Below are positions 4,580 through 45,176 of a DNA stretch of 64,000 nt, in pieces (within the stretch, counting starts at the first letter, position 1; every line of letters begins with the position of its first letter). The notes beneath the pieces are model-generated. The model was not told where the DNA came from. It ran no database searches and worked only from the letters and a program-made list of their open reading frames with translations. The position numbers were made by a program, and so were the translations under genes. Source of the DNA: Escherichia coli (GTDB lineage Bacteria > Pseudomonadota > Gammaproteobacteria > Enterobacterales > Enterobacteriaceae); NCBI RefSeq assembly GCF_013122565.1, contig NZ_CP053258.1, one strand, 5' to 3'.

Positions 4580-5749
4580 TTACTGGCGCTTATCCAGCGC
4601 GACAAACTGGCGGTCTTCCGGTCCAACATAATTGGCGGAAGGACGGATAATTTTGTTGTCCTGACGTTGTTCAATGATGTGTGCCGCCCAGCCGGTGACG
4701 CGGGCGATAACAAACAGTGGGGTGAACATCTCGGTGGGAACGCCCATCATGTTGTAGGAAACAGCAGAGAACCAGTCGAGATTGGGGAACATCTTTTTAC
4801 TCTCCCACATCACCGTTTCCAGGCGATCGGCGATGTTGTACATCTTCAGCGAACCGCCTTCCTGCGAGAGCTGCTTCGCCACGCGTTTGATCACCTGATG
4901 ACGCGGGTCGGCGATGGTGTAAACCGGATGACCAAAACCAATGACCACTTCTTTGTTTTCCACGCGCTTGCGGATATCTGCTTCGGCTTCGTCCGGCGTT
5001 TCGTAGCGTTGTTGGATCTCCAGCGACACTTCATTCGCCCCGCCGTGTTTCGGCCCGCGCAGTGCGCCAATCGCGCCAATAATCGCGGAATACATATCAG
5101 AGCCAGTGCCCGCAATCACCCGACTGGTAAAGGTGGAAGCGTTAAACTCGTGTTCGGCGTACAGCACCAGCGAAATATGCATCGCCTTTTCCCAGCTTTG
5201 CGACGGCTTTTCGCCATGCAGCAGATGCAGGAAGTGACCGCCGATGGAGTCGTCATCGGTTTCCGGCTGGATACGTTCGCCGTTATGGCTGTAGTGATAC
5301 CAATAAAGGAGAATCGAGCTAAGTGATGCCAGCAGTTTGTCGGCAATATCCCGCGCGCCAGAGACGGTATGTCCCTCTTTTTCTGGCAGCGTGCAGCCGA
5401 GCGCGGAAACGCCGGTGCGCATAACATCCATCGGGTGCGACGCCGCCGGTAAGGCTTCCAGCACGGTACGCACGTTAGCCGGTAAACCGCGCAGGGCTTT
5501 CAGTTTCGTTTTGTAGGCGGCGAGTTCGTCACGGGTCGGCAGTTTGCCGTGGATCAGCAGATGCGCCACTTCTTCAAATTCGCAATGTTCCGCCAGATCA
5601 AGAATGTCGTAGCCGCGGTAATGCAAGTCATTGCCGCTTTTACCCACGGTGCAGAGCGCCGTATTGCCCGCCGGAACGCCGGAAAGTGCTACCGATTTTT
5701 TCGGTTTAATGACATGGGTACTGTTTTGCAGGATCGTTGTGTCGCTCAT
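4580..5749 (-). CDS. prpC: 2-methylcitrate synthase
   Basis: ORF track gives 431 aa from an upstream in-frame start running through REP sequence; the start at [18 protein letters not shown] gives 389 aa. Confidence 0.9.
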
Positions 5750-11548: not shown

Positions 11549-12598
11549 TCAGTCTGTTAGTGTGCGATTATCGATAACAAAACGATATTTCACATCACCA
11601 CGCAGCATTCGCTCATAGGCTTCATTAATTTGATCGGCCCGAATCATCTCTATATCAGCCACGATGCCATGTTCGGCGCAAAAATCGAGCATCTCCTGTG
11701 TTTCTGGAATGCCGCCAATCATAGAACCGGCTATCGCACGGCGTTTCATGATCAGGTTGAAAACTTCCGGCGATTTATGCGGTGTCGCAGGCGCACCAAC
11801 CAGCGTCATGGTGCCATCGCGCTTCAGCAAGGTGGTAAAATCGTCGAGATTATGTGGCGCAGCTACTGTATTCAAAATGAAATCGAAACTCTTCAGATGA
11901 GCCGCCATCTCATCGGCATTGCGTGAGTTAACAACTTCATCGGCCCCCAGGGCTTTTACCGCTTCGCGTTTTGACTCAGAAGTGGTAAATGCCACCACAT
12001 GTGCCCCCATCGCGTGGGCCAGCTTAATCCCCATATGTCCCAGACCGCCGATGCCGACCACGCCCACTTTTTTACCCGGCCCGGCCTGCCAGTGACGTAG
12101 CGGCGAATACGTGGTGATCCCTGCACACAACAAAGGAGCCACCGCCGCCAGCTGCTCTTGCGGGTGACGAATACGCAGAACATATCGCTCATGTACGACG
12201 ATCTGTTGTGAGTAGCCGCCCAGAGTATGGCCCGGTTCGTCCGGCGTCGGCGAGTTATAGGTGCCGGTCATGTGATCACAGTAGTTTTCCAGCCCGTCTT
12301 CACACTCTTCGCAATGTTTACAACTGTCGACAATGCAGCCGACACCGACCAGATCGCCCGGCGCATGTTTTTCAACCTGATCACCAACGGCTACCACACG
12401 CCCCACAATTTCATGACCCGGTACGCAGGGGTAAACCGTCCCCGCCCACTCGGAACGGACCTGGTGGAGATCGGAATGGCAGACGCCACAGTAAGCGATT
12501 TCGATTTTGACATCATGCGGTCCCGGTTCACGCCGGGTGATATCCATCGGTTCAAGTGGTTGTTTAGCGGAATATGCACCAATAGCCTTGATATTCAT
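11549..12598 (-). CDS. yahK: NADPH-dependent aldehyde reductase (zinc alcohol dehydrogenase family) YahK
   Basis: Start at MNIKAIGAYSAKQPLEP (349 aa) with AGGAG 8 nt upstream; Zn-ligand motif GHEIVG and CGVCHSD. Confidence 0.88.
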   Translation of the reverse strand: MNIKAIGAYSAKQPLEPMDITRREPGPHDVKIEIAYCGVCHSDLHQVRSEWAGTVYPCVPGHEIVGRVVAVGDQVEKHAPGDLVGVGCIVDSCKHCEECEDGLENYCDHMTGTYNSPTPDEPGHTLGGYSQQIVVHERYVLRIRHPQEQLAAVAPLLCAGITTYSPLRHWQAGPGKKVGVVGIGGLGHMGIKLAHAMGAHVVAFTTSESKREAVKALGADEVVNSRNADEMAAHLKSFDFILNTVAAPHNLDDFTTLLKRDGTMTLVGAPATPHKSPEVFNLIMKRRAIAGSMIGGIPETQEMLDFCAEHGIVADIEMIRADQINEAYERMLRGDVKYRFVIDNRTLTD

Positions 12599-27081: not shown

Positions 27082-28554
27082 ATGTCCCGAATGGCAGAAC
27101 AGCAGCTTTATATACATGGTGGTTATACCTCCGCCACCAGCGGTCGCACCTTCGAGACCATTAACCCGGCCAACGGTAACGTGCTGGCGACCGTGCAGGC
27201 CGCCGGGCGCGAGGATGTCGATCGCGCCGTGAAAAGCGCCCAGCAGGGGCAAAAAATCTGGGCGGCGATGACCGCCATGGAGCGCTCGCGCATTCTGCGT
27301 CGGGCCGTCGATATTCTGCGCGAGCGCAATGATGAACTCGCAAAACTGGAAACCCTCGACACCGGAAAAGCGTATTCGGAAACCTCAACCGTCGATATCG
27401 TTACCGGTGCGGACGTGCTGGAGTACTACGCCGGGCTGATCCCGTCGCTGGAAGGCAGCCAGATCCCGTTGCGTGAGATGTCATTTGTTTATACCCGCCG
27501 CGAACCGCTGGGCGTGGTGGCAGGGATTGGCGCATGGAACTACCCGATCCAGATTGCCCTGTGGAAATCCGCCCCGGCGCTGGCGGCAGGCAACGCAATG
27601 ATTTTCAAACCGAGCGAAGTCACCCCGCTTACCGCGTTAAAGCTGGCTGAAATTTACAGCGAAGCGGGCCTGCCGGACGGCGTATTTAACGTGTTGCCGG
27701 GGGTGGGCGCGGAGACCGGGCAATATCTGACCGAGCATCCGGGCATTGCCAAAGTGTCATTTACCGGCGGTGTCGCCAGCGGCAAAAAAGTGATGGCTAA
27801 CTCGGCGGCCTCTTCCCTGAAAGAAGTGACCATGGAACTGGGCGGTAAATCACCACTGATCGTTTTCGACGATGCGGATCTCGATCTCGCCGCCGATATC
27901 GCCATGATGGCGAACTTCTTCAGTTCTGGTCAGGTGTGTACCAACGGCACCCGCGTCTTCGTTCCGGCGAAATGCAAAGCCGCGTTTGAACAAAAGATTC
28001 TGGCACGCGTTGAGCGCATTCGCGCGGGGGACGTTTTCGATCCGCAAACCAATTTTGGCCCGCTGGTCAGCTTCCCGCATCGCGATAACGTGCTGCGCTA
28101 TATCGCCAAAGGCAAAGAGGAAGGCGCGCGCGTCCTGTGCGGCGGCGATGTGCTGAAAGGTGATGGCTTCGATAATGGCGCATGGGTTGCGCCGACCGTG
28201 TTCACCGATTGCAGCGACGAGATGACCATTGTGCGCGAAGAGATTTTCGGGCCGGTGATGTCCATTCTGACCTACGAGTCGGAAGACGAAGTCATTCGCC
28301 GCGCCAATGATACCGACTATGGTCTGGCGGCGGGTATCGTGACGGCGGACCTGAACCGCGCGCATCGCGTCATTCATCAGCTGGAAGCGGGTATTTGCTG
28401 GATCAACACCTGGGGCGAATCCCCGGCAGAGATGCCCGTTGGCGGCTACAAACACTCCGGTATTGGCCGCGAGAACGGCGTGATGACGCTCCAGAGTTAC
28501 ACCCAGGTGAAGTCCATCCAGGTTGAGATGGCTAAATTCCAGTCCATATTCTAA
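27082..28554 (+). CDS. betB: betaine aldehyde dehydrogenase
   Basis: Start at [15 protein letters not shown] (490 aa); aldehyde dehydrogenase active-site motifs (ELGGKSP, catalytic Cys region). Confidence 0.93.
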
Positions 28555-28567
28555 CCAGGAGGTTTAT

Positions 28568-30238
28568 TTGCAATTTGACTACATCATTATTGGTGCCGGC
28601 TCAGCCGGCAACGTTCTCGCTACCCGTCTGACTGAAGATCCGAATACCTCCGTGCTGCTGCTTGAAGCGGGCGGCCCGGACTATCGCTTTGACTTCCGCA
28701 CCCAGATGCCCGCTGCCCTGGCATTCCCGCTACAGGGTAAACGCTACAACTGGGCCTATGAAACGGAACCTGAACCGTTTATGAATAACCGCCGCATGGA
28801 GTGCGGACGCGGTAAAGGTCTGGGCGGATCGTCGCTGATCAACGGCATGTGCTACATCCGTGGCAATGCGCTGGATCTCGATAACTGGGCGCAAGAACCC
28901 GGTCTGGAGAACTGGAGCTACCTCGACTGCCTGCCCTACTACCGCAAGGCCGAGACGCGCGATATTGGTGAAAATGACTACCACGGCGGCGACGGCCCGG
29001 TGAGCGTCACCACCTCCAAACCCGGCGTCAATCCGTTGTTTGAAGCGATGATTGAAGCGGGCGTGCAGGCGGGCTACCCGCGCACGGACGATCTCAACGG
29101 TTATCAGCAGGAAGGTTTTGGTCCGATGGATCGCACCGTCACGCCGCAGGGCCGTCGCGCCAGTACCGCGCGCGGTTATCTCGATCAGGCCAAATCGCGC
29201 CCTAACCTGACCATTCGTACTCACGCTATGACCGATCACATCATTTTTGACGGCAAACGCGCGGTGGGCGTCGAGTGGCAGGAAGGCGACAGCACCATTC
29301 CAACCCGCGCAACGGCCAACAAAGAAGTGTTGTTATGTGCAGGCGCGATTGCCTCACCGCAGATCCTGCAACGCTCCGGCGTCGGCAACGCTGAACTGCT
29401 GGCGGAGTTTGATATTCCGCTGGTGCATGATTTACCCGGCGTCGGCGAAAATCTTCAGGATCATCTGGAGATGTATCTGCAATATGAGTGCAAAGAACCG
29501 GTTTCCCTCTACCCTGCCCTGCAGTGGTGGAATCAGCCGAAAATCGGTGCGGAGTGGCTGTTTGGCGGCACCGGCGTTGGTGCCAGCAACCACTTTGAGG
29601 CGGGCGGATTTATCCGCAGCCGCGATGAATTTGCGTGGCCGAATATTCAGTACCATTTCCTGCCAGTGGCGATTAACTATAACGGCTCGAATGCAGTGAA
29701 AGAGCACGGCTTCCAGTGCCACGTCGGATCGATGCGCTCGCCAAGCCGTGGGCATGTGCGGATTAAATCCCGCGACCCGCACCAGCATCCGGCAATTCTG
29801 TTTAACTACATGTCGCACGAACAGGACTGGCAGGAATTCCGCGATGCAATTCGCATCACCCGCGAGATCATGCATCAACCCGCGCTGGATCAGTATCGTG
29901 GCCGCGAAATCAGCCCCGGTGTCGAATGCCAGACGGATGAGCAGCTCGATGAGTTCGTGCGTAATCACGCCGAAACCGCCTTCCATCCGTGCGGTACCTG
30001 CAAAATGGGCTACGACGAGATGTCCGTGGTTGACGGCGAAGGCCGCGTACACGGGCTGGAAGGCCTGCGCGTGGTGGATGCGTCAATTATGCCGCAGATT
30101 ATCACCGGCAATTTGAACGCCACGACGATTATGATTGGCGAGAAAATAGCGGATATGATTCGTGGACAGGAAGCGCTGCCGAGGAGCACGGCGGGATATT
30201 TTGTGGCAAATGGGATGCCGGTGAGAGCGAAAAAATGA
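28568..30238 (+). CDS. betA: choline dehydrogenase (GMC oxidoreductase)
   Basis: TTG start giving [21 protein letters not shown] (556 aa); FAD-binding GxGxxG. Confidence 0.9.
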
Positions 30239-30966
30239 GTCGTGATTTGAACTGACGCAAGTCCCTGCAAAGTTAAGCGTTACCGTCTTGAGATAGGTAT
30301 ACAAAGTCTCATACTTCTCTCTCAACAATCCGAAATAATCGGGTACCCGCGTTTACCGGATCAGGAAGGCATATACTATCCGGTCTGCGCTTTCTACTGC
30401 AATATTTCTAAAAGTTGCGCAACACGCGGCAGGATAGTGCTTTTACGCAAAGAAGCACTTTCTGCCGCCCGGGAAATGCGCGCGTGCTATACGCCGTTTT
30501 ACCTGAGATATGACAGAGTAAAGCCCTGTTAAAATACTCTTGTCGTCTCAGGTAAAATAAGTGATTAATATCAATCATATATTTTTACAGCAAGACAACC
30601 ACGTACAAACTCAGGATTAATATGTTTTACCGATTCCCCAACATAACCCAAATCAAGCGAACTAATTTGTGCCATTTCTTTCTCTGTCAATGAGAAATCG
30701 ATTTTTGATGGGCATCTGCAATACTCTGAAGCAGACTATAAGGAAAATTCTACTGCCCCCCTCCATTCCGCATGAACAATGAGTCTACGTTAAAACGTAA
30801 CCTCAAATTAGTATGTGGATTTTGATATCACTTATGCAAAAAATTCATTAATAATGTAGGACTGAAACCTCTCTATTTTCGGGGACAACGAAGCAGACGC
30901 TACCAGTGCTTTTGCCTTCGGCCTTGCTGTTTTTGATACACTTAGGGCCCAGGGCATAACGAAAAT

Positions 30967-31857
30967 GTGCGATATGACGAAGAATTAATGGAGAATGTGA
31001 TGATCAGGCAGAAGATTCTACAGCAGCTCCTGGAGTGGATTGAGTGCAATCTCGAGCACCCTATTTCAATTGAAGATATCGCACAGAAATCTGGCTACAG
31101 CAGACGCAACATCCAGCTTCTGTTCCGAAATTTCATGCATGTGCCTTTGGGAGAATACATTCGCAAACGAAGGCTTTGTCGTGCCGCCATTCTTGTCCGG
31201 CTCACCGCAAAATCTATGCTTGATATTGCACTCTTTTTGCATTTTGATTCACAGCAGTCATTCAGCCGCGAATTTAAAAAGTTATTCGGCTGCTCTCCCC
31301 GTGAATACCGCCACCGTGATTATTGGGATCTCGCAAATATCTTCCCTTCTTTTTTAATACGTCAACAGCAAAAGACGGAGTGTAGATTAGTCAACTTTCC
31401 TGAGACACTTATTTTTGGCAATTCATTTAAATATGACATTGAAGTGTCGAATAAATCACCGGATGAAGAAGTCAAACTGCGACGTCATCATTTAGCCAGA
31501 TGTATGAACAATTTTAAGACGGATATCTATTTCGTCTCCACGTTTGAACCGTCAACAAAATCGGTCGATTTACTCACAGTTGAAACTTTTGCCGGTACGG
31601 TATGTAAACAAACCGATTCAGAGATGCCGAAAGAGTGGACAATTAACCGAGGACTGTATGCATCTTTCCGCTATGAAGGTGAGTGGAAGCACTACCCTGA
31701 ATGGGCGCGAAACCTCTATCTGATGGAATTACCCGCCAGGAGGTTAGCCAGAGTGAACGGCAGTGATATTGAGCGGTTTTATTACAATGAAGATTTCGTA
31801 GAAAAGGATAGCAATGATGTTGTTTGCGAAATATTTATTCCTGTTCGTCCGGTTTAG
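30967..31857 (+). CDS. AraC-family regulator with GyrI-like effector domain (ykgA-like)
   Basis: 296-aa ORF; N-terminal AraC HTH (ISIEDIAQKSGYSRRNIQLLFRN...FDSQQSFSREFKKLFGCSPREYR); true start may be an internal Met. Confidence 0.7.
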   Translation: MRYDEELMENVMIRQKILQQLLEWIECNLEHPISIEDIAQKSGYSRRNIQLLFRNFMHVPLGEYIRKRRLCRAAILVRLTAKSMLDIALFLHFDSQQSFSREFKKLFGCSPREYRHRDYWDLANIFPSFLIRQQQKTECRLVNFPETLIFGNSFKYDIEVSNKSPDEEVKLRRHHLARCMNNFKTDIYFVSTFEPSTKSVDLLTVETFAGTVCKQTDSEMPKEWTINRGLYASFRYEGEWKHYPEWARNLYLMELPARRLARVNGSDIERFYYNEDFVEKDSNDVVCEIFIPVRPV

Positions 31858-31911
31858 CTGTCGCTATATCTAAATGAATTTATAACGAGACTACTGTCAG
31901 GCAATTCAATA

Positions 31912-31944
31912 AATAATGGCGTTGAAGATGTCAACGCCATTATT
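31912..31944. terminator. bidirectional rho-independent terminator between AraC-family gene and eaeH
   Basis: Perfect 14-bp stem aataatggcgttga/tcaacgccattatt, 5-nt loop, T-rich flanks on both strands. Confidence 0.7.
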
Positions 31945-31979
31945 GTTTATTAGAATGCTACTTTCATATCCTTAAAATA

Positions 31980-34900
31980 TTATTTAGCCGCTTCTTCTCC
32001 CTTTGCCGTATCTTCTGCCACGGCGGTAATGGTCACCGTCACTGGCTTCATTTCGTACCCGCCATAGGTCAGGGCGTTAAATGTGAACGTATAGACACCA
32101 GGCTTGCTGGTACTAAATGTACGCGTGATTTTTCCGCTCACGAAATGGTCATTTTTCGACGGCAGGAACTGATAATCCTTCTCCGTCACCCCTTCCGGCG
32201 TCTGAATGTCGACCCACATATTCCCCCCAACGGGGTTGTTTGCCGACATCAGTGTCACCTCCAGCTTCGCAGTCGATTTCCCATCCGCCACCAGAGATTG
32301 CACATCAGATGATGCGGTGAGTACCGCATTTTTATCATCCGCGACGAATTTAGATTCGGCAGTTTTCGTCGATACCTGACCGTTGTTCTGACTCACTTGC
32401 GCCGTGAGTGTATATGTCGCCGCAACAGTAGTGGTAGCGGTGAAAATAGCCTGCCCTTGCTCATTCGTTGTCGCAGTGCCATTCGGTTCCAGGTTTAACG
32501 AAGCCGGGCTGGCAGTCAGCGTCACTTCGCTATCTTTCAACAGGTTGTTATTGGCATCAGTCACCGTAACTTTATACGTTTGTTTGGCTTTGCCGTCCGC
32601 CAGCGCATAGTTGCCAATCACCTCAATACCGGAGACGGTTGCGGTAGCCTTATCGGCTACAAACGTTATAGTCTGCGTATTCGAAGGCTGGCTATTCCCT
32701 GCCGATGCCGTGATCTCATACGTTCCGGCAGTCACTGAAACCACCTGCAACTCTGCTTTCCCCTCATCGTTGGCTTTCACCCAGACATTATCGCCTGTAA
32801 GCGGCTTGACACCCCGGGGCAGATTAAAGGTCACCAGGCTCCCTGGAACAGGGTTACCATTTTTATCCTCAACGGTCGCCGTCAGCGTAAAGGCATCTTT
32901 GCCGTTTGCCACTTTTTGAACGGCGGTGTCTACCTGCAGGTTTGCCTGACCGGTGCTGGCATCCGCGTTGAATTTCACCGTGACCGTCTTCTGAGCACCA
33001 TTCACCGAAGCGGAAATATTGTGTTCTCCCGCAACCGTTGACATAAGCTCAATGTCCACTTTCCCTGCCGCATTGGTTGTTACTGTATTCCCCGTCTTGC
33101 TGGTCACACCCTGCGGTAAAGTCAGCGTAACTTCTTGCCCCTGCAACGGGTTACCATAGCTGTCCACGACGGTCAGGGTTATCTGGTTAGCAGACTGTCC
33201 ATTAGCCAGTTGGTTATTAACCTTCACTGTCATATCACGAATATCAGCCTGAGAAGCGTCCCCTGCAACGTTCAGCACCAGTGGCTGAGCAACAGCATTT
33301 TGGCCGTTCACTCGCGGCATCACAGACAACTGACCCGCAGCCGATCCCAGCGTTAAGGTCGCCACGTAGACCCCATTACCTTTCTCTGTCCAGTTTCCTG
33401 CTGAAGGACGCTCACTCCCCGTGCTGGCGGCACCGCTAAACACTGGTGCATCTGGCTTCAGCCCGGTGACCGGGTTCCCGTACGCATCCTTCACGGTGAA
33501 GGTGAGTTCCGTCGTCGTTTTGACGGTCGGAGCCTTATTGTCCGCAACAAGCGTAGAGTTCGCTGATGACATCTCTCCGGCGATGACCGTCAACTGCGCG
33601 GCTTCGGTGGCTGCTGGCTGGCCGTTGAAGAGCGGCATGACACGAAGCTCGCCCGTCTTTCCGCCTGTAGTCAACGTAGCAACATAGGAACCGTCACCTT
33701 TTTCGGTCCAACTGGAAACGGTCGCCCCTTCAGAGGCGGTCCCCGTCAAACTTGCCGACAACGCAAGACCACTGATAGCGTTGCCATGCGCATCTTTCGC
33801 CACCAGCATCACGGTTGTGCTTTCGCCGGCTTTTACGTGATCTTCTGCGACAGAGACTTTCGACTGGTTTGAAGATAACGCATCAGCCACCACGGTTACT
33901 TTTGCCGCATTTGCTGCCGCATCCTGTCCATTTAGCTTCGGCATAACTTCTAATTCACCCGCCGTAGAGCCGAGAGTAATCTGCGCAGTCCACGTCCCAT
34001 CACCATTATTTGTCCAGCCCGATGCCGTAGAACCTACAGCAGCGGCACCCGCTAATGACGGCGCTTCCGGCGTGAGGCTGGTCACAGGGTTGTCATAGGC
34101 ATCTTTTACCGTCCAGATTGCCGTAACTGTACCCCCAACCACCGGTTTATCAGGATTCAGGGTGATGGACGAATGTGCTGCATCAAGCGGCCCGGCAACA
34201 AACTTCAGCGTTTGTTGTAATGTGCCCAGCTGATACTGCTCGCTGAAGGCACGCACAACAACATTTCCTGCGCGAGTCGAAGAAACCGTAGCGCTGTAAA
34301 CCCCTGGTTTTATTTCCGAAATGGCACCAACGGTAACACCATTAATGTCTTGCGGAACAAGTCGCAGGCGGCTGGCTTCTCCCGTCACCGGATTACCCTC
34401 GGAGTCCACCGCAGTCAACGTCAACGTATAGGCTTGCTGACCATCAGCAACCACGTCACCTGACGGCTCGTTAGCGCTCAGGGTGGAGTTTGCCACATCC
34501 ATCATCGTGGCCCGCAGTTCTGCAGTGACGGTTTTGCTCATGCCATCAACGCTAACAGTAATCGTTGCCTCACCTGACTGCGTTCCGGTAGTAAAGACAG
34601 ACTGATACACCCCTGCTTCAGTTTCGGTGAACTCACCCAGTGTTGGCTTTGCCTGTGATTTAGTGGACTTCAGGGAACGAGTCACAATATTTCCAGCCGG
34701 TTTGAAGGCTAGTTCAGTCTTGATCTGATCTTTCATGCCCGTGACTGGCTGGCCCTCGGCGTCGCGCAGAGACAGCACCAGCGGTCTTTGCTCATTACCG
34801 TTAGCAAGCATTTGAATACGGCTCTGACCGTCAAGCGTTAACGCCGTGCGATCGGCACTCATACCTGCTCCGGTAATGACCACCTCTGTCTGCACGCGTT

Positions 34901-36233
34901 TTGAGGCATTGCCTTTGTTATCGTAGGCAACCGCAGAAATCGCATAATAATTGTCTTTGCCTGCCTGGTAAGCCGGGAGCGTCACTTGCCACTGATTACC
35001 CTGCCCCGTAATTTTTCCGCCTGCGGCCAGCAAAGACGGCGCTTCCCATTGAACATTTTTCAGACCGTGAGTTGCTTTACTCACCACAAGCCCCAGGGAA
35101 ACCGTCTGCCCGCCCTTGCCTTCAATACGTTCAGGCAGAGCAATACGGATCACTTCAGATTTGCGGTACTCAAGAACGATGTTGTTATTACGCTCAACCA
35201 GGTCATAGCGGCTGCCTGCCAGCATTCGACGCTCGCGAATGCTGTCTGTATCGAGTTGTTTTTGCAGAGGTTCGCCAATCCGATAATTAACTTCCAGGCC
35301 AAAGCGAGTGTCATTCTCACCACTCTTGCCCTGCTTATGCCCGGCACTCAGGGTCAGAAGAGGCACTGGCGTATAGGTCACCTCGGCAGAAATAGCATGC
35401 GGGTCTTTCTGGCGTTTATCTTTACCAAACAGCCCGACTTCATCGCCATAATACTGTTCATACATCAGGCTTGCGCCAAGCTGCGGCCAGGCGGGTAAAT
35501 AGCCCTCAGCACGAATATCCCAGCCATTCGCCGGGCGTTCCTGATAATCCTCAACATCCGGCGATTTTTTCCAGCCAGAAGCCCGGATATAACCATTGGC
35601 GCTCAGTTTCAAATAATCACGCCAGTATTCCGCACCAACACCAATGCGGGTATGACTACGGGATAAATCATGGTCGATAAAGGTGTTCACCCCCGCCATC
35701 CAGTCATTTCCTGAAAAATGACGCCAGCCAAAACCAATATTTGACTGAGTGCGATCATCTGTACGATGTATTGCCCCCTGAGTGAACAACATATTTGTCG
35801 GCGTATCATAAATAGGATAAAGCATTTCCAGAGAAGAATCCTTCAGCGAGAAATCTTTATCGACATTGAGTTTGACGCGCGCAGTACCGTATTTCCCGAG
35901 CCACTCCTGTATTTCCTGGTTAGCTTTAGCGGTGGCCATTCCGGTAATAAAGTTACGTGTCGCATCGCTATCTGGCTGACTGCTTAAAAAATTCCCAGCA
36001 TTTGCGGCAAACGACGCGACATTTTTCTCCACATTATTATCAGCAGCTACTGTGGTATTTTCCATGCTCAACCGTGGCTGAACCGCATGCTGCGCGCGTG
36101 CCGCCATTACTGGGGTAAAGGTGACCGCGAGTGGAAAAAGAACCTGAACAGAGATATTTGCCCACGCCACACAGCGGGCCAGAACTGAATAACGAAATCG
36201 TGGTTGTTTATGACCTGTTTTATAACGCGACAT
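31980..36233 (-). CDS. eaeH: intimin/invasin-family outer-membrane adhesin, full length (EaeH/FdeC)
   Basis: 1417-aa ORF; N-terminal beta-barrel region followed by many tandem Ig-like repeats; truncated pseudogene in K-12 as I recall. Confidence 0.85.
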   Translation of the reverse strand: MSRYKTGHKQPRFRYSVLARCVAWANISVQVLFPLAVTFTPVMAARAQHAVQPRLSMENTTVAADNNVEKNVASFAANAGNFLSSQPDSDATRNFITGMATAKANQEIQEWLGKYGTARVKLNVDKDFSLKDSSLEMLYPIYDTPTNMLFTQGAIHRTDDRTQSNIGFGWRHFSGNDWMAGVNTFIDHDLSRSHTRIGVGAEYWRDYLKLSANGYIRASGWKKSPDVEDYQERPANGWDIRAEGYLPAWPQLGASLMYEQYYGDEVGLFGKDKRQKDPHAISAEVTYTPVPLLTLSAGHKQGKSGENDTRFGLEVNYRIGEPLQKQLDTDSIRERRMLAGSRYDLVERNNNIVLEYRKSEVIRIALPERIEGKGGQTVSLGLVVSKATHGLKNVQWEAPSLLAAGGKITGQGNQWQVTLPAYQAGKDNYYAISAVAYDNKGNASKRVQTEVVITGAGMSADRTALTLDGQSRIQMLANGNEQRPLVLSLRDAEGQPVTGMKDQIKTELAFKPAGNIVTRSLKSTKSQAKPTLGEFTETEAGVYQSVFTTGTQSGEATITVSVDGMSKTVTAELRATMMDVANSTLSANEPSGDVVADGQQAYTLTLTAVDSEGNPVTGEASRLRLVPQDINGVTVGAISEIKPGVYSATVSSTRAGNVVVRAFSEQYQLGTLQQTLKFVAGPLDAAHSSITLNPDKPVVGGTVTAIWTVKDAYDNPVTSLTPEAPSLAGAAAVGSTASGWTNNGDGTWTAQITLGSTAGELEVMPKLNGQDAAANAAKVTVVADALSSNQSKVSVAEDHVKAGESTTVMLVAKDAHGNAISGLALSASLTGTASEGATVSSWTEKGDGSYVATLTTGGKTGELRVMPLFNGQPAATEAAQLTVIAGEMSSANSTLVADNKAPTVKTTTELTFTVKDAYGNPVTGLKPDAPVFSGAASTGSERPSAGNWTEKGNGVYVATLTLGSAAGQLSVMPRVNGQNAVAQPLVLNVAGDASQADIRDMTVKVNNQLANGQSANQITLTVVDSYGNPLQGQEVTLTLPQGVTSKTGNTVTTNAAGKVDIELMSTVAGEHNISASVNGAQKTVTVKFNADASTGQANLQVDTAVQKVANGKDAFTLTATVEDKNGNPVPGSLVTFNLPRGVKPLTGDNVWVKANDEGKAELQVVSVTAGTYEITASAGNSQPSNTQTITFVADKATATVSGIEVIGNYALADGKAKQTYKVTVTDANNNLLKDSEVTLTASPASLNLEPNGTATTNEQGQAIFTATTTVAATYTLTAQVSQNNGQVSTKTAESKFVADDKNAVLTASSDVQSLVADGKSTAKLEVTLMSANNPVGGNMWVDIQTPEGVTEKDYQFLPSKNDHFVSGKITRTFSTSKPGVYTFTFNALTYGGYEMKPVTVTITAVAEDTAKGEEAAK

Positions 36234-43922: not shown

Positions 43923-45176
43923 TTACGCACGAATGGTGTAATCACCAATGCCGATCCACTTGTAAGTGGTCAGTGCTTCCAGCCCCATTGGGCCACGCGC
44001 GTGGAGTTTTTGTGTGCTTACCGCCACTTCCGCACCCAGACCAAACTGGCCGCCGTCGGTAAAACGCGTAGAGGCGTTAACGTAAACAGCGGACGAATCC
44101 ACTTCGTTAACAAAACGCTGGGCGTTGCGCATATCGCGGGTCAGGATCGCATCGGAGTGTTGTGTGCCGTGTTCACGAATATGGGCGATGGCATCGTCAA
44201 GATCGCTGACGATTTTGACGTTCAAATCTAATGACAGAAACTCATCGTCATACTCTTCGGCTTTAACCGCCACCACCTTCGCGGGGCCTGTCTGCAACTG
44301 CGCCAGCGCAGCAGCATCTGCGTGTAACGTCACGCCGCTTTCCGCCATTTGCTTGCTTAATGCGGGCAGGAAGCTATCGGCGATGTTTTTATTTACCAGC
44401 AACGTTTCTACCGTATTACATGTGCTCGGACGCTGAGTTTTCGCGTTGACGATCACTTTTAATGCTTCAGCGATCTCTGCACTTTCATCAACGTAAATAT
44501 GGCATACGCCTATACCACCAGTGATCACCGGGATTGTCGACTGTTCGCGGCACAGTTTATGCAAACCAGCGCCACCACGCGGGATCAGCATGTCGATGTA
44601 TTTATCCATACGCAGCATTTCACTGACCAGCGCACGGTCAGGATTATCAATCGCCTGCACGGCACCCGCCGGTAAGCCACAGGATTTCAGGGCGTCCTGA
44701 ATCACCGCCACCGTTGCCGCGTTAGTGCGACAGGTTTCTTTGCCACCACGCAGGATCACCGCATTACCGGTTTTCAGGCACAGCGAAGCGACATCAACCG
44801 TCACGTTCGGGCGCGCTTCATAAATCACGCCAATAACCCCCAGCGGTACGCGACGACGCTCAAGACGCAGGCCGCTGTCCAGTACGCCGCCATCGATTAC
44901 CTGCCCCACCGGATCGGCGAGATTGCACACCTGGCGCACATCGTCGGCAATGCCTTTCAGCCGTGCGGGCGTCAGTGCCAGACGGTCAAGCATCGCTTCG
45001 CTAAGGCCATTGGCACGCGCGTCAGCAACATCCTGGGCGTTAGCGTTGAGGATGATTTCGCTTTGTGCTTCCAGTTCATCGGCGATTTTTTCCAGCACGC
45101 GATTTTTTTCGCGGCTGGAGAGTTGCGCTAATTTATACGAGGCTTGCTTCGCGGCAATGCCCATTTGTTCCAGCAT
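43923..45176 (-). CDS. proA: gamma-glutamyl phosphate reductase
   Basis: 417-aa [41 protein letters not shown]... Confidence 0.93.

Follow-up and report, generated by a model that had tools for sequence, protein, structure and literature searches.

The 130-nt segment downstream of betA that carries two strong hairpins is very probably non-coding debris in a lineage-specific bet-ykg-rcl deletion scar, and neither a gene nor a mobile element. It lies in the Escherichia coli bet locus, within a window of 64,000 nt (the whole stretch of DNA that was analysed), where only ~760 nt separate betA from a ykgA-like regulator. A preliminary description had noticed two hairpins here, at 30428-30468 and 30497-30557, and had offered three readings of them, namely a small structured RNA, a miniature inverted-repeat element (MITE) and the scar of a deletion. 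Both hairpins were found at these positions by repeat searching and folding, and the third reading is borne out by a mosaic of ykgG and aldo/keto-reductase (AKR) relics in which hairpin 1 straddles the junction of a ~6.6-kb deletion. Most likely no mechanism underlies the hairpins, hairpin 2 being inherited and hairpin 1 a by-product of the junction. Hairpin 2 is an inherited palindrome that is present in the window as a more perfect allele, and hairpin 1 was assembled by the rearrangement, with a left arm of ykgG codons and a right arm of filler. Neither hairpin would be under selected function today, and any effect on betA read-through, or on transcription of the opposite strand from the AKR promoter, would be incidental.

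Gene content and mosaic structure of the scar

The left border of the scar is an intact betA (choline dehydrogenase, 28568..30238, + strand) and its right border an intact AraC-family/GyrI-like regulator (ykgA-like, 31000..31857, + strand), beyond which lies fdeC (31980-36233, - strand). Both borders follow the PGAP annotation of a genome with an identical scar, in which the betA coding sequence measures 1671 nt, and the regulator carries the Pfam families HTH_18, HTH_AraC and GyrI-like; betA is 96.7% identical to betA of K-12. In the standard order, as seen in K-12 derivatives and strain 104, the genes run betA, ykgH, ykgG-ykgF-ykgE, rclR, rclA-rclB-rclC, AKR, regulator and fdeC. The window lacks ykgH and, in addition, ~6.6 kb comprising the 5' part of ykgG, ykgF, ykgE, rclR and rclABC: by comparison with strain 104, the gap between 30449 and 30491 (positions 5003 and 11602 of that strain's sequence, L006) amounts to 6,598 nt, which run from inside ykgG to the end of an rclC-proximal hairpin and are replaced by a 41-nt filler. 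No match to ykgH, ykgF, ykgE, rclA, rclB or rclC was found anywhere in the 64-kb window, and the sole rclR match there is a paralogous AraC-family regulator at 31012-31317. In strain 104 (L006 1-3716), hyxR-hyxA-hyxB lie directly before ykgH, in the place that betA occupies in K-12 and the window, and the ykgH-side flank is thus variable in gene content.

We mapped the interval between the two borders by blastn, Smith-Waterman and tblastn. Directly 3' of betA stand 21 nt in common with K-12 (30239..30259; blastn to L004 1269-1289 at 90%, a weak match with E 0.009), followed by 49 nt without a detectable counterpart (30260..30308) in place of ykgH. These 49 nt, which align to neither K-12 nor strain 104, form a second scar that substitutes for ykgH and its flanks (~1.1 kb in K-12); YkgH scored E 0.2 or worse in the region and gave no match at E 1e-3 across the whole window. 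Two ykgG relics on the - strand come next. Relic A (30309..30367, 80% to K-12, L004 2381-2438) covers the gene's 3' terminus with the region of the stop codon, which stands at L004 2392 in the K-12 locus. Relic B (30362..30449, 84% to K-12, L004 2501-2588) corresponds to codons 167-195, is recovered by tblastn with YkgG residues 167-195 at E 3e-9 and is interrupted by two in-frame stop codons. The final 28 nt of relic B match K-12 exactly and hold the left arm of hairpin 1.

Beyond the filler (30450..30490), which occurs in scar genomes only, lies a relic of the rclC/AKR intergenic region (30491..30570), aligned to the standard locus (L002 3955-4047) with a 13-nt gap; from the G+C-rich rclC-proximal hairpin of that locus, only the last 5 nt, ACGCC, survive in the window. 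AKR fragments of the K-12 ykgQ type (30571..30764, - strand), annotated by PGAP as a pseudogene in the identical-scar genome, consist of the C-terminal 42 codons plus stop (30571-30699) and an internal fragment of about codons 193-216 (30693-30764), with tblastn E values of 3e-25 and 1e-6. The map closes with the opening 16 nt of AKR and the divergent AKR/regulator intergenic (promoter) region (30738..30966), which align at 96.5% to strain 104 (L006 12549-12779, where the AKR coding sequence ends at 12564). Since positions 30524-31100 are collinear with the ykgQ/ykgA remnant of K-12 at 94.6% identity, the AKR decay is that of an old K-12-type allele. The relics have no coding capacity, the ykgG relic being interrupted by its two stops and AKR being fragmented. 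A 56-aa ORF on the - strand (30408-30578) has no Pfam family and is spurious, being pieced together from AKR flank, filler and ykgG relic. In the standard E. coli rclC/AKR intergenic region (L002 3917-3959), a perfect 10-bp G+C-rich hairpin (GGCGTCAGGC ... GCCTGACGCC) adjoins the homologue of hairpin 2; because its T-run lies on the 5' side on the + strand, this rclC-proximal hairpin does not qualify as a canonical terminator of rclC or of AKR, the two convergent genes.

The scar and its filler occur, at one copy each, in 8 of 5,426 complete E. coli genomes, five of them at least 99.5% identical to the window and three belonging to an MB53-type sub-lineage at 93.7%; the two sub-lineages are separated by 38 substitutions in the 728-nt region (5.2%). 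Strains with the scar include wlxctx60, PT62/LP5-1, 6EVA and UTME-7. Comparison of window positions 27239-33966 with strain wlxctx60 (L001) showed the scar region (30239-30988) to be 100% identical, betB and betA to its left to differ by ~3-4%, and the 3' end of the regulator and fdeC to diverge strongly. As the scar is identical and its flanks are divergent, the scar haplotype sits in a recombination mosaic. MB53 and LHM10-1 (L003 / L005) carry a 9-nt tandem duplication, CTCTCTCAA, in the ykgG stop region, equivalent to position 30316 of the window; the betA annotated in this sister scar lineage has 18 additional nt, and in LHM10-1 an ISEcp1 element takes the place of the regulator side.

Hairpin 1 and the junction filler

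Hairpin 1 (30426..30468) straddles the ykgG/filler junction at 30449|30450 and starts ~190 nt downstream of the betA stop codon (which ends at 30238), close to the ~200 nt first given for it. What had been described as a ~16-bp interrupted stem folds, in 30424-30472, into 18 pairs with one bulge (30426-30444 / 30451-30468) and a 6-nt loop, at -27.5 kcal/mol. The proposed folding check came out strongly, with z = -5.8 for hairpin 1 and z = -7.6 for hairpin 2, and since 0/200 shuffles were as stable in either case, both hairpins exceed chance for their composition. Among + strand folds of 50 nt across the 64-kb window, hairpin 1 is one of the three most stable; the other most stable 50-nt folds on that strand start at 45081, 9276, 58236 and 27281 (-27.0 to -28.5 kcal/mol).

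The left arm and loop, up to 30449, are ykgG codons (LRKSTILPR) identical to those of K-12. At 30449 the homology to ykgG stops abruptly, and K-12 continues with unrelated sequence (GGATAAAAAGAG...) that forms no hairpin there. The possibility that ykgG coding homology extends into the filler was rejected, identity falling from 100% to random at 30449|30450. The right arm (30451-30468) lies in the filler, AAGAAGCACTTTCTGCCGCCCGGGAAATGCGCGCGTGCTAT, the reverse complement of which aligns to the adjacent left arm (GCGGCA-GAAAGTGCTT versus GCGGCAGGATAGTGCTT).

We infer that the filler is a compound junction made of two short templated pieces, both inverted, one of which would be a copy of the neighbouring ykgG sequence, thereby making hairpin 1, and the other part of rclR. 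A templated-junction test gave p ~0.001 for the inverted ykgG match and p ~0.002-0.01 for an inverted rclR 13-mer, the pieces being short and diverged. The first value reflects the finding that 1 in 1000 composition-matched shuffles of the filler matched the neighbouring 50 nt, in inverted orientation, as well as the filler itself does. The second concerns filler positions 30465-30489, which have an exact 13-mer, CGCCCGGGAAATG, in common with rclR codons 62-69, inverted relative to the standard locus and within a match of 19/24 nt; it was equalled by 4/2000 shuffles and by 5/488 real control 41-mers. At this borderline significance, 30465-30489 may be an inverted fragment of rclR (codons 62-69). 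Replication template switching or fold-back repair would yield a junction of this kind, as judged from the end product.

Hairpin 1 could instead be a coincidence, in which the filler is an unrelated lineage-specific leftover that is complementary to ykgG without any templated inverted copying. Neither alignment nor a scan of 100,044 genomes proved a source for the filler: it has no E. coli match outside the eight scar genomes, its local alignment to the intact 8.3-kb region is not significant (11/200 shuffles), and the 20-nt right arm (AAGAAGCACTTTCTGCCGCC), scanned in 100,044 species genomes, gave a single match, in an Akkermansiaceae MAG, which is about the chance expectation for a 20-mer. 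Moreover, the two arms differ at 3 of ~18 positions, and the hairpin was chosen by eye from 64 kb, which brings in a selection effect. Against coincidence stand the rarity of equally complementary filler shuffles and the fact that one of the three strongest 50-nt folds of the window falls exactly on a rearrangement junction, and we consider it unlikely while leaving it some weight. Among the 5,426 complete E. coli genomes, none represents the pre-deletion state.

The two scar sub-lineages differ in hairpin 1 by one substitution, in the loop, and by none in the 37 stem nt, where ~1.9 would be expected; this weak deficit is not significant (Poisson P ~0.15) but is compatible with some constraint.

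Hairpin 2, its alleles and possible functions of the segment

Hairpin 2 (30496..30558) is a palindrome situated 13 nt beyond the AKR stop. Its initial characterization as 12-bp perfect arms around a 37-nt spacer with an inner repeat was exact: the repeat search returned 12-nt arms of 100% complementarity (30497-30508 / 30546-30557) with a 37-nt spacer, and the fold has a 14-bp outer stem (30496-30509 / 30545-30558) and a 9-bp inner stem with one bulge (30512-30520 / 30535-30544), at -26.8 kcal/mol on the + strand. A homologue of this palindrome, in imperfect form, stands next to AKR in ~5,050 of the 5,426 complete E. coli genomes; outside the scar genomes, homology to the window always begins exactly at 30491. 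The standard position is likewise 13 nt 3' of the AKR stop, between the convergent genes rclC and AKR.

We compared the window allele of hairpin 2 with seven further alleles in an alignment. In the standard allele (TATTACCGGAGA ... TCTCAGGTAAAA) the arms contain two mismatches, the inner stem is weaker and the loop is longer by 13 nt; the left arm of the window type reads TTTTACCTGAGA. Six substitutions separate the two alleles, all at stem positions, and five of them improve pairing. In the window, four pairs are repaired or strengthened and the loop is 13 nt shorter; the predicted energies are -26.8 kcal/mol for the window allele, -17.7 for that of MB53 and -18.3 to -19.9 for the standard form. 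The substitutions that improve pairing could reflect selection for structure, as opposed to homogenization by template switching or retention of an ancestral state. With changes on both arms, the full set is more than one switch in a single direction could produce. No outgroup that would polarize the substitutions was found, AKR orthologues of other genera having unrelated 3' flanks; the standard palindrome also accompanies the divergent AKR alleles of E. coli (92-94%), and in none of the 5,426 genomes does the window-type palindrome occur together with an intact rclC. The closest AKR homologues outside E. coli (87-89%; L014 SRR30067235 and L015 ERR11172896, Logan assemblies) belong to operons with a CMD-family gene, and in such AKR-[ADH]-CMD operons of other genera a zinc alcohol dehydrogenase is present or absent; given this different context, the comparison suggests that the AKR-regulator pair of E. 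coli was acquired separately.

In the sister scar lineage, hairpin 2 is evidently decaying. That sub-lineage differs from the window by 6 substitutions in the 63 nt of hairpin 2, against 5.2% regionally, and two of them in the MB53 sub-lineage, G30505C and G30545C, break stem pairs and bring the energy up to -17.7 kcal/mol. Across the eight alleles, 0/23 pairs are compensatory, none having changed on both sides from one standard pair type to another; 14 pairs do not vary and 4 deviate solely through unpaired cells, in a covariation test that was limited to E. coli alleles and therefore of low power.

These observations bear on whether a small structured regulatory RNA is encoded here, as a free-standing molecule or as part of a pseudogene transcript. 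Such an RNA would be consistent with the exceptional fold of the whole 146 nt, with z scores of -7.4 (+ strand) and -5.8 (- strand), but the absence of any compensatory change and the two disruptive substitutions that hairpin 2 has gathered in the sister lineage argue against it. So do the Rfam search of 29500-31500 at E up to 10, which returned only noise (E 3.9 and 8.9, both outside the segment), the promoter-like sites, which are at background (3 found versus 2.4 expected), and the origin of half of hairpin 1 in ykgG coding sequence, in a combination that exists in only 8/5,426 genomes. The RNA reading of the preliminary description is accordingly very improbable.

The MITE reading, extended to other dispersed repeats (REP/BIME, ERIC or an integron attC) and to either hairpin 2 or the whole segment, has in its favor an A+T-rich core bounded by perfect terminal inverted arms of 12 nt, together with the varied contexts of the AKR gene family across genera. 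A dispersed element should recur, but blastn at word size 11 and megablast against the 5,426 E. coli genomes found one copy per scar genome, the only second places in the word-11 search being the 28-nt ykgG match, and this single-copy result leads us to reject the MITE and REP readings. The arms have one other match within the 64 kb, with a mismatch, and no flanking direct repeat of 2-10 nt marks a target-site duplication. The matches among plasmids are F-prime plasmids or mislabelled chromosomes (chromosome-sized records), and phages gave none. An attC site is an imperfect palindrome that follows a cassette ORF on its 3' side and is bounded by the core sites R'' (RYYYAAC) and R' (GTTRRRY); neither core motif occurs on either strand of 30400-30600. 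We therefore assign mobility next to no probability.

A role at the level of transcription deserves somewhat more consideration, with the hairpins acting as transcription barriers or stabilizers of RNA 3' ends, whether by stopping or stabilizing betA read-through on the + strand or by stopping, on the - strand, antisense transcription from the AKR promoter into betA. Each hairpin has a very stable fold on either strand (-21.5 to -27.5 kcal/mol); the 5' region of AKR and the intergenic DNA on its promoter side are kept at 96.5% identity, which makes an antisense transcript plausible, and in the standard locus hairpin 2 lies between the convergent genes rclC and AKR, where terminators are expected. 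Yet no U-tract follows hairpin 1 or hairpin 2 on either strand, in agreement with the original view that they are not simple betA terminators, and a terminator scan flagged neither of them, reporting only a weak 5-bp stem at 30482-30494. Hairpin 2 is moreover A+T-rich and has been degraded in the MB53 lineage without compensation. On balance a barrier or stabilizing function is improbable, and our preferred reading of both hairpins continues to be that of debris in a deletion scar.

Significance and relation to known systems

Beyond that reading, a natural multi-step template-switch rearrangement might account for the junction: in one event ~6.6 kb would have been lost, two short inverted templated insertions gained, one of which forms the 18-bp hairpin, and a quasipalindrome perfected, after which the haplotype would have persisted (~5% divergence, two sub-lineages) and moved between backgrounds by recombination. 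We offer this sequence of events tentatively, as a possible history that is more likely wrong than right in its entirety. If the insertions are templated, the junction anatomy would add a modest example of templated insertions at bacterial deletion junctions.

The case is an ordinary one and of little weight for biology in general, being mildly unusual only in the anatomy of its junction and in the loss of rcl and ykgEFG in a rare E. coli haplotype. It eliminates one candidate for a structured RNA or MITE, and it illustrates that rearrangement junctions and inherited palindromes can give strong fold z-scores. The 8 of 5,426 complete E. coli genomes without ykgH, ykgEFG and rclR-rclABC could matter for phenotype prediction, as PGAP annotates rclR-rclABC as reactive-chlorine resistance and ykgEFG are lactate-utilization genes.

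Among known systems, the nearest is the K-12 ykgQ pseudogene with its 3' flank by rclC, which has the same internal AKR deletions as the window. K-12 differs in that its hairpin-2 palindrome is imperfect, with arms that mismatch at two places, a weaker inner stem and a loop longer by 13 nt, and in that the palindrome is preceded there by the G+C-rich rclC-proximal hairpin and rclCBA, both of which are deleted in the window. MITEs, REP/BIME and ERIC elements resemble the segment in their inverted terminal arms and small size, but the segment is single-copy, lacks a target-site duplication and is not mobile. Rho-independent terminators are likewise stable stem-loops in the 3' flanks of genes, and hairpin 2 lies between convergent genes in the standard locus; unlike them, neither hairpin has a U-tract, hairpin 2 is A+T-rich and 63 nt long, and half of hairpin 1 is coding sequence. 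Finally, quasipalindrome and template-switch mechanisms have been described in E. coli and other organisms: quasipalindrome mutations in E. coli are a subject of PMC7202029, and template switching that creates or perfects inverted repeats is treated in PMC8794818 and PMC5941160. Although in our case the mechanism is read from the end product only and the direction of change in hairpin 2 is not polarized, the locus resembles quasipalindrome and template-switch mutagenesis in two respects: hairpin 1 is an inverted near-copy of adjacent sequence exactly at a breakpoint, and several substitutions in hairpin 2 move an imperfect palindrome towards perfection.
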